This document shows, piece after piece, positions 49,015 to 53,931 of a stretch of DNA of 64,000 nucleotides. Source of the DNA: Devosia sp. (lineage in GTDB: Bacteria > Pseudomonadota > Alphaproteobacteria > Rhizobiales > Devosiaceae). The first letter of the stretch is position 1, and every line of letters begins with the position of its first letter. The notes under the pieces are model-generated. The model searched no databases and was not told where the DNA came from. It worked only from the letters and a program-made list of their open reading frames with translations. The stretch lies in assembly GCA_035549855.1 (NCBI GenBank), contig DASZPY010000014.1, positions 1,015 through 65,014 of the forward strand. Reading direction: 5' to 3'. A program made the position numbers and the translations under genes.

Positions 49015-49044
49015 TTGACACGTGACCATTTGGTCACCTAATGT
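49015..49044 (+). promoter_or_regulatory. Sigma70 promoter with internal palindromic operator
   Basis: TTGACA (49015-20), GTGACCA-TT-TGGTCAC (49022-37), TAATGT (49039-44). Confidence 0.7.
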
Positions 49045-49051
49045 CGCGACC

Positions 49052-49801
49052 GTGGATGCGGTCTTCAAGGCGCTGAGCGATCCCACGAGGCGCCAATTGC
49101 TCGACACCCTGCGCGACAGGGGCGGACTGACGCTCACCGAGCTTGAAGAAGGGCTCGGCATGACGCGGTTTGGGGTGATGAAGCACCTTCGGGTGCTGGA
49201 GGCTGCAAACCTCGTCGTGACCCGCCGGGATGGGCGGTTCAAGTATCACTATCTCAACGCGCTGCCGATCCAGGAGGTCGCAGATCGCTGGATGGCGCCC
49301 TATGGCAAGCCTCTGGCCCGGTTCGCGCTCGACATAAAAAACGCACTGCAGGAACGTCACATCATGGCCGACAAGTCCGACTACGTGCTCCAGACCTACA
49401 TTCGCACCACGCAGGATGCGCTGTGGGACGCACTCATCAATCCCGACAAGACCGCGCTCTACTATTACAAGGCCCGCATCAAGACCGACCTGAAGGTCGG
49501 CAGTCCCTTCCAGTATTTCGACGCCGAAGGCGGATTGATGCTGGATGGCGAGGTCGTCGAGGTGAAGCCGAAGACGAAACTCGTCACGACGTTCCTCGCC
49601 CCTTGGGCAGAGAATCCCAAACTGACGCGCGTGACCTTCGAGATCGAGCCTGCCGGCGATCTCTGCAAGTTCACGCTCACACATCACGACTACAAGGCAT
49701 CCAATGCCGGTGCGGATGCCGGCTGGAAGCTCATCGTGGATGGACTCAAGACCCTGCTCGAGACGGGCAAGCCGCTCAACGTTCCCGAGATGAGCGACTG
49801 A
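49052..49801 (+). CDS. ArsR-SRPBCC(AHSA1) fusion regulator
   Basis: FKALSDPTRR, MTRFGVMKHLRVLE, then YIRTT..LWDAL...GW...GLKTLLETG. Confidence 0.9.
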   Translation: MDAVFKALSDPTRRQLLDTLRDRGGLTLTELEEGLGMTRFGVMKHLRVLEAANLVVTRRDGRFKYHYLNALPIQEVADRWMAPYGKPLARFALDIKNALQERHIMADKSDYVLQTYIRTTQDALWDALINPDKTALYYYKARIKTDLKVGSPFQYFDAEGGLMLDGEVVEVKPKTKLVTTFLAPWAENPKLTRVTFEIEPAGDLCKFTLTHHDYKASNAGADAGWKLIVDGLKTLLETGKPLNVPEMSD

Positions 49802-49842: not shown

Positions 49843-51705
49843 CTATTCCGCCGCTTTGGCGTCGAGATCGAGGAAGCCACCCGACTGCCGCTCCCAGAGC
49901 TGGGCGTAGTGCCCTCCCCGGGCCAGCAGTTCGGCGTGAGTCCCCTCCTCCACGATCTGCCCGCGTTCCAGTACGACCAGCCGGTCCATCGCCGCGATCG
50001 TCGAAAGCCGGTGGGCGATTGCGATCACGGTCTTGCCCCGCATCAGGGTCGCCAACTGCTCCTGGATTGCCGCCTCCACTTCGCTGTCGAGCGCGGATGT
50101 GGCTTCGTCGAGGATCAGGATCGGCGCGTTCTTGAGCAGCACACGTGCAATCGCCACGCGCTGGCGCTGGCCGCCCGAGAGCTTCACCCCGCGTTCGCCG
50201 ACATGCGCGTCGTAGCCGCGCCGCCCGTGGGGATCGACCAATCCGGCGACGACCTCAGCAATTTTTGCCTGCTCGGCCGCTTGGAACATCTCGGCGTCGC
50301 TCGCCTCCTGCCGGCCATACTTGATGTTCTCGCGCACGGAGCGGTGCAGCAGCGACGTATCCTGACTGACCAGGCCGATGGCGGCGCGCACGCTTTGCTG
50401 TGTGACGTGCCGCACATCCTGTCCATCGATGCGGATCGATCCCGCTTCCACGTCGAACAGACGCAAAGCGAGATTGACGAGCGTCGATTTGCCAGCGCCG
50501 GACCGGCCAACCAGACCGACCTTCTCGCCCGGGGCGATACGCAGGTTGAAGCGCTCCATGACGGTGCCTTCCTTGCCGCGCCAGTAGTTGAAGGTCACGT
50601 CGTCGAAGACGATCTCGCCTTTGCTGACTGAGAGCTCAGGTGCACCAGGGTCATCGAGCAGCGTGATCGGCTGCGCGATCGTGTCCATCGAGTCCCGCAC
50701 CGTGCCCAGCTGCCTGAAAATGTTGGAGCCGATCTCGAGGATCCAGCCCGACATGTTCATGATCTGGAGCGCGAAGGGTATGGCCGTGGCCACGGCCGCC
50801 GCGTTGAGCACGCCGTTGTTCCAGCCCGCCAACGCGATCCACGTGATCGAGACGACGAGCCCCGCATTGAGGATGAATAGCGTCGACCACATATAGGTGA
50901 AGACGCGCATCAGCTTCCAATACTCACCCGTGTGGAGATGCACGGATTCGGCGACGTAGCGGTCCTCATGGTCGCCGGTCGAGAAGGTCTTGAGCGTCTG
51001 GATGTTGGTGTAGCTGTCCACCATTCGCCCCGTCATCACCGACTTGGCGTCGGACAGCAGCTCGGAGTGGCGGGCGATCAGCGGCATCGTGATCGAGAAC
51101 AGGATGCCGTAGAGCACCAGCCACACGGCGATGGGGACCAGCAGCATCCAGTTGAGGCCGGCCAGCACGACCACCGCGACCACGACGAACACCGCGGCAT
51201 ACCACACCGCGTCCACAGCCGAATTGACCGCGCTTTCCAGCGCCTCGCCGCTCTGCAGCACCTTGTTGCTGATGCGGCCGGCAAAGTCGTTCTGGAAGAA
51301 CGTCCAGCTCTGCCGGATGATGTGCCAATGGCTCTGCCAGCGCACCCGATTGACGAGACTTGGCGCCAGCGCGTGGTTGCGTACCAGGGTGTCGAGCACG
51401 AAGGTGATCGGCCGGACCAGCGCGACCACGGCAATCATCGCCACAAGGGTCGGCCAGTGCGCCGAGAACATTTCGCCCCGGCGCGTCGAATCCAGAAATC
51501 CAACGACAATGCCGACGAAGATCGGGAACATGGCGTCGGCCGTCGAGCCGACCGCAACGAGGCCGAGCCGGATCAGGAAGGCAGCGCGGAACTGCCGGAT
51601 GAAATAGAAGCAGAAATCCCACAATCCATTGGGAGGTTGCGGGTTGGCCGCGATGGCGACGGGCGAATAACGGCCGTCGAACCAGGCGAGGATGCGATTG
51701 AACAT
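49843..51705 (-). CDS. ABC exporter, fused TMD-NBD (multidrug-type)
   Basis: FQNDFAGRI, GRSGAGKS, LSGGQRQR, LDEATSALD; start MFNRILAWF chosen by analogy to the paralogue. Confidence 0.92.
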   Translation of the reverse strand: MFNRILAWFDGRYSPVAIAANPQPPNGLWDFCFYFIRQFRAAFLIRLGLVAVGSTADAMFPIFVGIVVGFLDSTRRGEMFSAHWPTLVAMIAVVALVRPITFVLDTLVRNHALAPSLVNRVRWQSHWHIIRQSWTFFQNDFAGRISNKVLQSGEALESAVNSAVDAVWYAAVFVVVAVVVLAGLNWMLLVPIAVWLVLYGILFSITMPLIARHSELLSDAKSVMTGRMVDSYTNIQTLKTFSTGDHEDRYVAESVHLHTGEYWKLMRVFTYMWSTLFILNAGLVVSITWIALAGWNNGVLNAAAVATAIPFALQIMNMSGWILEIGSNIFRQLGTVRDSMDTIAQPITLLDDPGAPELSVSKGEIVFDDVTFNYWRGKEGTVMERFNLRIAPGEKVGLVGRSGAGKSTLVNLALRLFDVEAGSIRIDGQDVRHVTQQSVRAAIGLVSQDTSLLHRSVRENIKYGRQEASDAEMFQAAEQAKIAEVVAGLVDPHGRRGYDAHVGERGVKLSGGQRQRVAIARVLLKNAPILILDEATSALDSEVEAAIQEQLATLMRGKTVIAIAHRLSTIAAMDRLVVLERGQIVEEGTHAELLARGGHYAQLWERQSGGFLDLDAKAAE

Positions 51706-51739
51706 TTGGGTCTCATCGGAGTGAGAACCCGGCCGAAAC

Positions 51740-51829
51740 TCAGCTGCGGGTTCGCGTGAAGGATTTTCGCTTGCGGATGTGCCGGTTGATATGGCGGCCG
51801 GCATCGCGCGTTCCATTCATGCTTTCCAT
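51740..51829 (-). CDS. Putative basic leader peptide MESMNGTRDAGRHINRHIRKRKSFTRTRS
   Basis: AAGGAG-7 nt-ATG; stop 34 nt before the exporter start; alternative hairpins. Confidence 0.55.
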   Translation of the reverse strand: MESMNGTRDAGRHINRHIRKRKSFTRTRS

Positions 51830-51872
51830 CGGGAGTCTCCTTGGTTGACCCGCAGATGCGGGTGTTGAGTTC

Positions 51873-53720
51873 CTATTCCGCCGCTTCTTCGACGATGTCG
51901 GCGTCGATGAAGCCGCCCGACTGGCGCTGCCAGAGGCGGGCGTAGATTCCGTTTTGCGCGAGCAGTTCGGCGTGGCTTCCCTGCTCGACGATGCGTCCCT
52001 GCTCGATAACGACGAGCCGGTCGAGGGCCGCGATGGTTGAGAGGCGGTGCGCGATGGCAATCACCGTCTTGCCGCGCATCAGCGTCTGCAGCTGGCCCTG
52101 GATTGCGGCTTCGACCTCGCTGTCGAGCGCGGAGGTGGCCTCGTCCAGCACCAGGATCGGCGCATTCTTGAGCAGGACGCGTGCGATGGCGATGCGCTGG
52201 CGCTGGCCGCCGCTGAGTTTCACGCCGCGCTCGCCCACATGGGCATCGTAGCCGGTGCGGCCTTTTGCGTCGGCGAGGCTTTCGATGAAGTCGTGTGCTT
52301 CGGCGAGCTTGGCCGCAGCAATTATCTCCGCCTCGGTCGCATCCGGCCGGCCATAGGTGATGTTGTCGCGCACCGAGCGATGGAGCAGCGACGTGTCCTG
52401 CGTCACCACACCGATATTCTCGCGCAGTGTGTCCTGCTGGACCTCGGCGATATCGGTGCCGTCGATCAGGATCCGGCCGCTCTCGCGGTCATAGAAGCGC
52501 AGCAGCAGATTGACCACGGTCGACTTGCCCGCGCCAGAACGGCCGACAAGTCCGACCTTCTCGCCCGACTTGATGTGAAGGTCCAACCCTTCGATCACGC
52601 CACTCTTCTTGCCGTAGTGGAACGAGACATTATCGAAGACGATGTCGCCCTTGTTCACGGTCAGCGCCGGCGCGCCCGCCCTGTCGCTCACCACGCGCGG
52701 AAGCGAGATCGACGAGATCCCGTCGCGGACGGTGCCGATATTCTCGAAGAGCTGAGTCATTTCCCACATGACCCATTGGCTCATGCCCTGGAAGCGCATG
52801 ACCAGGGCGACCGAAACCGCAATGGCCCCCGGTGTCATCTGTCCATTGGTCCACAGCCAGATGCCGAGTCCCGCCGTCACCAGAAGCAGGCTCATGTTGA
52901 GCCCATATATGCCGTAGTTCAGCAGGCTGAACATGCGCATCTGCCGGTAGACGGTGCCGAGGAAATCGTCCATCGACTCCTTGGCGTAGCTCTCCTCGCG
53001 GCTCGAATGGGAGAACAGCTTGACCGTCGCGATGTTGGTGTAGCTGTCGACGACTCGACCGGTCATCATCGAGCGGGCATCTGCCTGCAGCTCCGATACC
53101 TTGCCCAGCCGGGGAATATAGTGGCGCAGCAGCAGCGAATAGAGCGCGAGCCAGGCGAGGAACGGGATGGCGAGACGCCAGTCGTTCGTCGCCGCGAGGA
53201 TCACCGCACCGATGAAATAGACGCCGACATAGACCACCACGTCGAGCAGCTTCATCATCACTTCGCGTACGGCGAGCGAGGTCTGCATGAGCTTGGCGGC
53301 GATGCGGCCGGCGAACTCGTCCTGGAAATAGCTCATCGACTGCCGCAGCAGATAGCGATGGCTCATCCAGCGGATGCGCTGCGGGAAATTGCCGAGCAGC
53401 GTCTGGTGGACGATGAAGCTGTTGAGCGTCACCAGCACGAAGAGGCCGAGCAGGAACACGGCCATGAAGAGGAGCGTGCCGCCCTCGCGCGCAAAGAAGC
53501 TCGCTGGTTCCGCTCCGCTCAGCCAGTCGACGATCTTGCCGAGGAAGCCATAGACGAACACTTCGCCCGCCGCGATCGTCGCCGACAGGGCCGCCATCGC
53601 CAGCAGCCAGCGTTTCGCGCCCTTCGAATAATGCAGGCAGAACGCGACAAGGCCCCGGGGCGGCTGCTCCGGTTCATCGGGCGGATAGGGATCGAGGCGG
53701 CGTTCGAACCAGCCAAACAT
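51873..53720 (-). CDS. ABC exporter, fused TMD-NBD (multidrug-type)
   Basis: MFGWFE..., FQDEFAGRI, complete NBD motifs. Confidence 0.93.
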   Translation of the reverse strand: MFGWFERRLDPYPPDEPEQPPRGLVAFCLHYSKGAKRWLLAMAALSATIAAGEVFVYGFLGKIVDWLSGAEPASFFAREGGTLLFMAVFLLGLFVLVTLNSFIVHQTLLGNFPQRIRWMSHRYLLRQSMSYFQDEFAGRIAAKLMQTSLAVREVMMKLLDVVVYVGVYFIGAVILAATNDWRLAIPFLAWLALYSLLLRHYIPRLGKVSELQADARSMMTGRVVDSYTNIATVKLFSHSSREESYAKESMDDFLGTVYRQMRMFSLLNYGIYGLNMSLLLVTAGLGIWLWTNGQMTPGAIAVSVALVMRFQGMSQWVMWEMTQLFENIGTVRDGISSISLPRVVSDRAGAPALTVNKGDIVFDNVSFHYGKKSGVIEGLDLHIKSGEKVGLVGRSGAGKSTVVNLLLRFYDRESGRILIDGTDIAEVQQDTLRENIGVVTQDTSLLHRSVRDNITYGRPDATEAEIIAAAKLAEAHDFIESLADAKGRTGYDAHVGERGVKLSGGQRQRIAIARVLLKNAPILVLDEATSALDSEVEAAIQGQLQTLMRGKTVIAIAHRLSTIAALDRLVVIEQGRIVEQGSHAELLAQNGIYARLWQRQSGGFIDADIVEEAAE

Positions 53721-53931
53721 GTAGTCACCTGACAATGCGAGAGAGGCGCAAGACTTGACGCGGATGGGCTCCGCAGGCTTGTTGCGCGCTGGCGCCGCCG
53801 GCCCTTCCCAATGCCGCCGGATTTGGCGGGCATTGAGACAGGGCCGGTCGAACCAGCCGGTCAGAATATAAGAAGATTCGCGGTTCTGGCTGTAGCCGGC
53901 CCGCAACACTCGTGGCGACTGGAGTTCCGGG

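Follow-up and report, generated by a model that had tools for sequence, protein, structure and literature searches.

A conserved leader open reading frame and competing hairpins between tandem ABC exporter genes of Devosia: a candidate translational attenuator

What lies between two tandem ATP-binding cassette (ABC) exporter genes of Devosia, and could it decide when the second gene is translated? The question arises from a 64,000-nucleotide stretch of Devosia sp. DNA (Hyphomicrobiales; contig DASZPY010000014.1 of assembly GCA_035549855.1), hereafter called "the window". Two half-transporter genes, exporter 1 and exporter 2, follow each other on its minus strand, separated by a spacer of 167 nucleotides (nt) that is read on the same strand. 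Within this spacer lie a short open reading frame (ORF), preceded by its own Shine-Dalgarno (SD) sequence, and two hairpins that compete for a common RNA segment. We argue that the spacer is very probably a ribosome-dependent regulatory leader. As to how it acts, we tentatively favor, with rather less than even confidence, a leader-peptide translational attenuator of exporter 2 that is ON when translation of the leader is slowed or blocked. The genes and the leader are located as follows.

51873 to 53720, minus strand: exporter 1, an ABC half-transporter (transmembrane domain plus nucleotide-binding domain) of 615 amino acids with the N-terminus MFGWFERRLD; Pfam ABC_membrane and ABC_tran.
51837 to 51842, minus strand: leader SD, AAGGAG; its duplex with the canonical anti-SD has an energy of -8.5 kcal/mol, and it lies 7 nt before the ATG at 51829.
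51740 to 51829, minus strand: leader ORF, 29 codons plus TGA (51742-51740), with the peptide MESMNGTRDAGRHINRHIRKRKSFTRTRS and the C-terminus IRKRKSFTRTRS.
51764 to 51772, minus strand: the Lys-Arg-Lys codons AAG CGA AAA, minor codons that encode the most widely conserved motif of the peptide.
49843 to 51705, minus strand: exporter 2, an ABC half-transporter of 620 amino acids with the N-terminus MFNRILAWFD; Pfam ABC_membrane and ABC_tran.

Where does exporter 2 begin? The first-pass annotation, a reading of the window alone, had placed its start at 51705 and had foreseen that gene callers would extend it to 51816, where the longest ORF of this frame indeed begins. However, the similarity of exporter 2 to its relatives starts, in all loci, exactly at Met38 of the long form, which is the ATG at 51705. 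The start codon is ATG in every locus compared, and 68 of the 74 unique relatives have an in-frame stop on the 5′ side of this conserved ATG, usually within 2-17 codons. In addition, an equivalent MF-WF motif (MF(G)WF) opens the paralogous exporter 1, and the ATG at 51816 lies 20 nt from the leader SD. On these comparative grounds, the start of exporter 2 is the ATG at 51705, not 51816. A start at 51816 or 51804, which the annotation had named among the outcomes that would overturn its proposal, is not borne out by the closed frames of the relatives or by the point at which homology begins.

Is the short ORF more than an accident? We took 80 loci from species-representative genomes, 70 of which were orthologous with readable upstream DNA, and the combined set comprises 74 unique leader regions with ORFs of 23-34 codons (mostly 29-34). 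All 16 same-genus orthologous loci contain a strong SD followed by an ORF of 29-33 codons that ends 34-41 nt before the exporter ATG. The canonical leader is found in 69 of the 70 orthologous species-representative loci, the 70th carrying a variant, and the detection rule fires in 1.4% of shuffled spacers. The distance from the leader stop to the exporter ATG is 34-55 nt, or about 100 nt in loci with insertions. The leader SD, which in the window begins 30 nt past the exporter 1 stop codon (TAG, 51875-51873), is strong in all 74 unique sequences, with a mean of -9.6 kcal/mol, as compared to -2.9 kcal/mol for the region upstream of exporter 2; the SD of exporter 1 itself, AGGUGA, has -8.2 kcal/mol. 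All of these energies assume the canonical anti-SD, the 3′ end of the 16S ribosomal RNA not being in the assembly.

A covariance model (CM) built from 34 sequences yielded exactly one match per genome, always abutting the start of exporter 2. In the GTDB genus of the window (g1), 32 of the 40 sampled genomes have a match, and the same 32 carry exporter 2. The element is a single copy in the window's own genome by an nhmmer search, and neither nhmmer nor the CM, each with one match per genome, found a paralogous leader copy within a genome. In Rfam 15, the spacer matches no family, the only hits being at chance level (E of 0.2 or more). The leader is more than a chance feature, as judged by its conservation with covariation among the relatives. 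The three genes keep the order exporter 1, leader, exporter 2. The leader ATG follows the stop of exporter 1 at a distance of 26-540 nt, and co-transcription is therefore likely where the spacer is short. Neither a terminator-like nor a promoter-like site was found in the spacer (51700-51875), and no U-run follows either of the two hairpins described below.

What does the peptide tell us? The leaders fall into three subfamilies. The peptide ends in ...KRK(P/S)F(T)RTRS-stop in subfamily A, which includes the window, and in ...KRKQSxRALT-stop in subfamily B, while that of subfamily C reads MGDII...(R)KP(M/I/S)DR(Y/H/F)RT-stop. The stop codon is UGA in all 74 unique sequences of the three subfamilies. 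The leaders of other genera end in ...VKRKSLYKSWLVQR-TAG (g33), ...LKRKFLKTTRHLQ-TAA (g21), ...SRKFKPKHQSSRMPRQF-TGA (g37), ...VKRKQYHKAKP-TGA (g26), and ...KKRKQQSSATT-TGA (g24); a leader was also looked for in genera g23, g32, and g39, and none was found there. Conserved N-terminal (ME[TS]xN, MGDII) and C-terminal blocks flank a hypervariable middle, and the peptide has no Pfam match. The Lys-Arg-Lys (KRK) motif is shared by subfamilies A and B and by genera g21, g24, g26, and g33; its conservation is only partial in subfamily C, which retains the last Lys. An RxR motif is conserved in subfamilies A and C, strictly at positions -4 to -2 in the latter, but not in subfamily B.

The codons of these conserved residues are informative. 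The Arg of KRK is encoded by CGA in 32 of 32 sequences of subfamilies A and B, and the flanking Lys codons alternate between AAA and AAG. The conserved block AAR-CGA-AAA-CAA consists of minor codons in this 64% G+C genome, in which, by a crude estimate from long ORFs, CGA accounts for ~13% of Arg, AAA for ~20% of Lys, and CAA for ~18% of Gln. In subfamily C, Arg(-4) is retained in 38 of 38 sequences through four codons (CGA, CGU, AGG, and CGG), and Asp(-5) uses both GAC and GAU; both residues lie outside the hairpin P1 of this subfamily. Since conserved residues are kept through synonymous codons, the peptide is, on this codon evidence, selected as such, and its decoding speed is probably under selection as well. 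A programmed frameshift or read-through joining the leader to the exporter was also considered and rejected: the stop-to-ATG distances (34, 36, 37, 38, 39, 40, 41 ... nt) cover all residue classes modulo 3, and several relatives have an interrupted CGA-AAA run.

How could such a leader control the next gene? The 3′ end of the leader and the nucleotides preceding exporter 2 can form two hairpins.

51725 to 51753, minus strand: hairpin P1, with the outer stem GAACCCG (51753-51747) paired to CGGGUUC (51731-51725) and the inner stem GCUGA:UCGGC, enclosing the leader stop codon.
51708 to 51730, minus strand: hairpin P2, GGGUUCUCA (51730-51722) paired to UGAGACCC (51715-51708), with its 3′ end 2 nt before the ATG at 51705.
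51712 to 51714, minus strand: GAG, the minimal SD of exporter 2, 6 nt before its ATG and within the 3′ arm of P2.

Folded alone, P1 has an energy of -16.5 kcal/mol (z-score -3.55, with 1 of 200 shuffles as good) and P2 has -10.2 kcal/mol (z-score -2.79). In the window they share positions 51725-51730, and the P1 and P2 states, folded in a 56-nt context, differ by no more than about 1.5 kcal/mol. P2 covers the GAG, the only SD-like element of exporter 2. All subfamilies and genera examined have this triplet, at a spacing of 5-8 nt (most often 6) upstream of the exporter ATG. As the region upstream of exporter 2 is weak and offers the GAG alone, we assign the roles of three arms: arm C is the minimal SD, arm B is a CUC anti-SD mimic that pairs with it in P2, and arm A is an anti-anti-SD that sequesters the mimic in P1. 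A further ORF of 47 codons (51573-51716, minus strand) runs out of frame with exporter 2, and its AUG belongs to the word AUGAG, which never varies in subfamilies A and B. In subfamily C the word is often not AUG, and therefore this AUG is probably not a start codon.

Both hairpins covary. The P1 pairs were counted with the stop codon and G-Y-U-C as anchors, and also on the CM alignment; a MAFFT alignment misregistered the 3′ arm of P1 in subfamily A. In the 34 unique sequences of subfamilies A and B, six of the seven outer-stem pairs are 91-100% paired, and a compensatory pair is G-C in 20 and A-U in 14. The P1 of subfamily C has 6+3 base pairs (CCUGAC:GUCAGG plus CCG:CGG), and the inner part of P1 differs wholly in sequence between lineages, with its pairing kept. 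On the CM alignment of 62 distinct sequences, 83% of the P1 cells are paired, as compared to 20-41% when the arms are slid, and the covariation was matched by 0 of 500 shuffles. P2 is 92.5% paired in subfamilies A and B, as compared to 20-43% in slid controls, with 0 of 500 shuffles as good. Two of its pairs change on both sides (G-U/U-A at 16:15, and G-U/U-G/U-A/C-G) around an invariant CUC:GAG core. The position of the stop codon within a hairpin is itself an uninformative statistic, being shared by 62% of shuffles; the mean energy z-score is -2.64.

These results agree with much of the first-pass annotation. The AAGGAG, the 29-codon ORF, and both pairings were all confirmed at its coordinates on the minus strand; the comparison of orthologous spacers that it had suggested retains the ORF, as described above, and the two hairpins that it had called mutually exclusive share an arm and both covary. 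It had also pointed to a duplication of the leader 3′ end, ACCCGCA, in one arm of a hairpin farther upstream.

51848 to 51863, minus strand: upstream hairpin, just past the exporter 1 stop codon, with an energy of -10.6 kcal/mol and a z-score of -4.66.

The repeat is present at 51751-51745 and 51863-51857, but neither it nor the upstream hairpin occurs in the spacers of the relatives. No U-run follows this hairpin, so it is no terminator. Two extensions of the three-arm scheme were rejected. A four-segment model requires an arm D, in which GAG-Y pairs with the G of the AUG and codon 2 (C:D pairing, or P3); this is possible, but lacks covariation. A long-range A:D pairing suggested by RNAalifold has only 4 base pairs and is broken in two loci (L007 and L110).

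Several loci depart from the common architecture. Six (L059, L061, L065, L070, L088, and L090) carry hairpin insertions of 50-60 nt inside the P1 loop, and three others (L010, L011, and L018) have G-rich repeats, resembling repetitive extragenic palindromic (REP) elements, inserted in the stretch that leads from the exporter 1 stop to the leader SD; the P1 stem and the leader ORF are intact in both groups. In genera g25 (L154) and g27 (L135/L076), the leaders have lost their stop and, at 48-50 codons, continue past the ATG of exporter 2 in another reading frame, terminating ~50 nt into the gene. In g25, a deletion has removed all of the P1/B region.

How might the ribosome choose between the two hairpins? 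In the attenuator that we favor, whose polarity is that of the first-pass annotation, the position of the ribosome on the leader would select P1 or P2. When arm A is free, P1 would hold the CUC mimic, leaving the initiation region of exporter 2 open. Arm A would be free if no ribosome were present, or if one were detained at the minor codons of the conserved Lys-Arg-Lys motif, a short distance upstream of the core P1 stem. A ribosome running on to the UGA would melt P1, and the released mimic would then close P2 over the SD. This closure would be most effective in the first round of translation behind RNA polymerase, through a kinetically trapped fold. The output of exporter 2 would thus rise with translation inhibitors or scarce Lys/Arg-tRNA, and fall when the leader is freely translated.

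Counted by hand, 10-14 nt separate the last Lys codon from the core P1 stem in most lineages, and 8 nt in g37. In some sequences, minimum-free-energy folds lengthen the stem toward this codon, and the gap shrinks to as little as 3 nt in part of subfamily B. A ribosome starting to unwind P1 would accordingly carry ...KRK at the peptidyl end. For a ribosome on the window leader that has R21 in its P site and K22 in its A site, which is the geometry of arrest at +X+ motifs (PMC8298421), the first nucleotide of P1 is at +17 and the hairpin could remain folded. A ribosome that has T27 in its P site, or that has reached the UGA, would cover arm A and the inner stem, leaving arm B free to close P2. 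In agreement with this model, masking the leader 3′ end in the window reduces the predicted accessibility of the AUG from 0.95 to 0.37-0.52, and the AUG and the SD region both become less accessible.

Other findings weigh against this polarity. The masked and unmasked folds that the first-pass annotation had proposed as a check fit its polarity in the window sequence, but across the family thermodynamic ribosome masking gives no consistent shift in accessibility, and in local folds the GAG is predicted to be paired in both states. The naked RNA is already dominated by P1, and therefore early stalling would resemble the basal state, unless folding is kinetically trapped. The overlap of P1 and P2 is full in subfamilies A and B and in g37, but only 1-2 nt in subfamily C, g21, and g33; genus g26 has no clear P2, and subfamily C lacks a strict KRK. 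The g25 and g27 leaders that cross the exporter ATG fit poorly with a scheme in which reaching the end means OFF. Moreover, the proposed attenuator is read from sequence and predicted folds, with translation, stalling, and regulation all being predictions. The inconsistent masking, the short overlap in subfamily C, g21, and g33, the preference of the naked RNA for P1, and the g25/g27 variants are the reasons why we hold the polarity only tentatively.

Could the polarity be reversed? In an arrangement of the ermC/tnaC type, arrest at the last codons or at the UGA, over arm A, would melt P1 and let arms B and C pair, freeing the AUG from the weak C:D pairing and switching exporter 2 ON. This reading is unlikely, but it has real points in its favor. 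Selection in subfamilies A, B, and C acts on the amino acids of the C-terminus, namely R(-4), D(-5), and [ST](-1); the UGA is invariant there, and only the state with arm A covered differs clearly from the ground state of the naked RNA. In local folds, covering arm A raises the accessibility of the AUG from 0.73 to 0.93 in subfamily A, from 0.62 to 0.69 in subfamily B, and from 0.57 to 0.73 in subfamily C. On the other hand, the only SD-like element of exporter 2 would then be locked in P2, the C:D pairing amounts to merely 4-5 base pairs with no two-sided covariation, and the C-terminus and the stop vary in other genera (TAG in g33, TAA in g21; tails ...WLVQR and ...RHLQ).

The leader might also act without sensing anything. 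In constitutive translational coupling, its SD would recruit ribosomes, and either their passage would remodel the region or re-initiation would serve exporter 2. We give this explanation a small share of the probability. Exporter 2 is essentially SD-less in all 74 unique loci and the leader SD is strong, the g25/g27 leaders overlap the exporter start in the classic coupling layout, and coupling by upstream ORFs is documented in the alphaproteobacterium Sinorhizobium meliloti (PMC13285730), which we count in its favor. Nevertheless, the usual distance from the leader stop to the ATG is long for re-initiation, as is that in the loci with insertions. Coupling would require neither the conservation of amino acids nor the invariant minor codon CGA, and covarying alternative hairpins with a common arm suggest a switch.

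Is the signal an antibiotic? At motifs of the +X+ type, ribosomes with a bound drug stall when X occupies the P site (PMC8298421; the +X+ rule is also treated in PMC12583479). Macrolide or ketolide arrest at R/K-x-R/K, namely K20-R21-K22, could therefore induce exporter 2 as an antibiotic-resistance pump, a proposal that comes from the first-pass annotation and that we regard as improbable. It gains from the geometry described above, in which P1 may stay folded with R21 in the P site, from the conservation of KRK, which extends over subfamilies A and B and four further genera, and from the known drug-sensing leaders of ABC exporters and efflux operons (PMC4191407, PMC10314930). Against this, subfamily C keeps only the last Lys of KRK together with a strict RxR, subfamily B is without RxR, and stalls at KRK and at RxR would drive opposite RNA states. 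As the two motifs would act in opposite directions and neither is universal, +X+ arrest is not the common denominator of the family. The exporters, for their part, match only generic ABCB/MsbA-like models, with scores under the cut-off of each family. Macrolide sensing fits no better than would a general slowdown of translation, or a shortage of Lys/Arg-tRNA that is felt at the minor codons.

A more specialized sensor can also be imagined. The basic nascent peptide (Lys-Arg-Lys ... Arg-x-Arg/Leu-Ser/Thr-stop), together with a hairpin at the entry channel, would form a dedicated arrest sensor, responsive to a natural product or a substrate of the pump and not simply to slow translation in general. 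Through this switch, the homodimer of exporter 1 would be replaced by a heterodimer of exporters 1 and 2 or by a second kind of homodimer. We consider this to be a long shot. The Walker B Glu and the H-loop are canonical in the nucleotide-binding domains of both exporters, and the sequences are therefore silent on whether the two form a heterodimer.

The peptide could instead be the product that matters, a functional basic micro-protein such as an accessory of the exporter, with hairpins that are incidental or stabilize the mRNA. Its conserved terminal blocks with synonymous variation and its strong SD would suit such a role, but the hypervariable middle and the lack of a Pfam match would not; the stop codon is enclosed by a covarying hairpin, one arm of which is also used by the SD-covering hairpin, and the element is always attached to the start of exporter 2. 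We thus judge it highly improbable. The weakest alternative, that exporter 2 starts at 51816 or 51804 with no separate leader and an accidental short frame, finds support in the frame that is open from the ATG at 51816 in the window, and can practically be dismissed in view of the upstream stops in the relatives, the onset of similarity at Met38, the equivalent start of exporter 1, and the 20 nt between the SD and that ATG.

How is the leader distributed among genomes? Five same-genus genomes (loci L161-L165, in G017, G006, G013, G057, and G018) have exporter 1 orthologs of 69-83% identity with neither exporter 2 nor the leader. Other genes follow directly after exporter 1 in these loci, and in three of the five the next gene resembles the one for a GH2 glycosidase on the far side of exporter 2 in the window. 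Directly after exporter 2, in convergent orientation, the window has a gene for a regulator with ArsR/HTH_20 and AHSA1 domains (49022-49801, plus strand). From this gene order, the leader and exporter 2, with the ArsR-AHSA1 gene, look like an insertion or deletion module; since exporter 1 stands alone in some genomes, the leader and exporter 2 appear separable from it, and exporter 1 probably works without them.

A paralogous stand-alone exporter, with the N-terminus MFNAIIDWFDRH or MFGAIIDWFDQH, has a different, longer leader 100-350 nt upstream of its ATG (L102, L104-L109, and L155-L158). In this leader, the hairpin GAGGGAUACCCUC directly precedes the AUG of a short ORF that begins MR(H/Q/N)(D/E/Q)xG. 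Two of these loci, L102 and L105, retain a P1/P2 tail like that of subfamily A beside the exporter ATG, and for this reason the exporter 2 leader may be derived from such a 5′ leader. The region before exporter 1 is also conserved: the subfamily A genomes have a 5′ region of ~130 nt with the core GGGAAGGGCCGGCGGCGCCGGCGCGCAACAAGCC (53721-53931 of the window, minus strand; upstream regions of L032-L110), while the subfamily B genomes have there the palindrome CTTGACCTCAAC-N4-GTTGAGGTCGTAG within a promoter-like spacer, which looks like a MerR-type operator.

What follows from these findings? The start of an ABC exporter is corrected, and an unannotated mini-gene, of predicted translation, is added. 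The leaders make up a conserved, very probably cis-regulatory family in Devosiaceae; it numbers 74 unique sequences, and its three subfamilies serve as natural mutants. Since exporter 1 is found alone in some species, the leader with exporter 2 would be a separable regulated module. Should the leader prove to sense translation inhibitors or a metabolite, this would be, to the extent of what we found, the first described leader-peptide control of an alphaproteobacterial ABC exporter, and also a case in which only one half-transporter of a tandem pair is conditionally made. Switches of this kind, namely translational attenuation and mid-operon leaders, are already known, while the Devosiaceae family is absent from Rfam; our search of the literature on Devosia leaders, and on arrest peptides and ABC transporters in Alphaproteobacteria, found no description of it.

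How, finally, does the Devosia leader compare with the known systems? Like ermC with its leader ermCL, and like the cat and cmlA leaders, it is a short leader with its own SD, here predicted to be translated, and it has alternative hairpins, one of which occludes the downstream initiation region, with no terminator. Mutually exclusive structures of the ermC type are found in the window, in subfamilies A and B, and in g37, with the 1-2 nt overlap in subfamily C, g21, and g33. Unlike ermC, to which it has no sequence relation, it has three supported segments (arms A, B, and C) instead of four, the initiation region seems to be open in its ground state, and its position is intercistronic. The ErmDL and other +X+ leaders (PMC8298421) are matched by two R/K-x-R/K motifs in the window leader, KRK and RTR, but neither motif is universal in the family, and macrolides are no more than conjectured substrates of the pump.

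The trp-type attenuators resemble the reading that we favor in their logic. A ribosome held upstream frees segment "2" (arm A) to trap segment "3" (arm B), and at the stop segment "3" pairs with segment "4" (arm C). The output, however, would be occlusion of the SD and not termination, the downstream gene is an ABC exporter with no link to amino-acid biosynthesis, and there are only three candidate sensor codons (Lys-Arg-Lys), which are not conserved in subfamily C.

The closest parallels in gene content are bmrB-bmrCD of Bacillus subtilis and mefA-msrDL-msrD of streptococci. The former likewise joins a leader peptide to a pair of ABC half-transporter genes, and rare codons in the bmrB leader affect the outcome (PMC4191407), just as minor codons are conserved in the Devosia leader. 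But bmrB works by transcription attenuation at an intrinsic terminator and precedes both genes (PMC4191407), whereas the Devosia leader lies between the genes, has no terminator, and could gate only the second. The streptococcal system shares the mid-operon leader with a strong ribosome-binding site shortly past the stop of the upstream efflux gene, and msrDL regulates only the downstream gene, msrD (PMC10314930). It differs in that msrDL has 6 residues (MYLIFM), erythromycin arrest at the stop codon, and a Rho-independent terminator (PMC10314930), and in that msrD encodes an ABC-F ribosome-protection factor, not a transporter; the MYLIFM peptide and the Rho-independent terminator are absent from the leader and spacer of the window. 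Without a terminator, and with no sequence relation to any of them, the Devosia leader combines ermC-, bmrB-, and msrDL-like features in a single intercistronic element.

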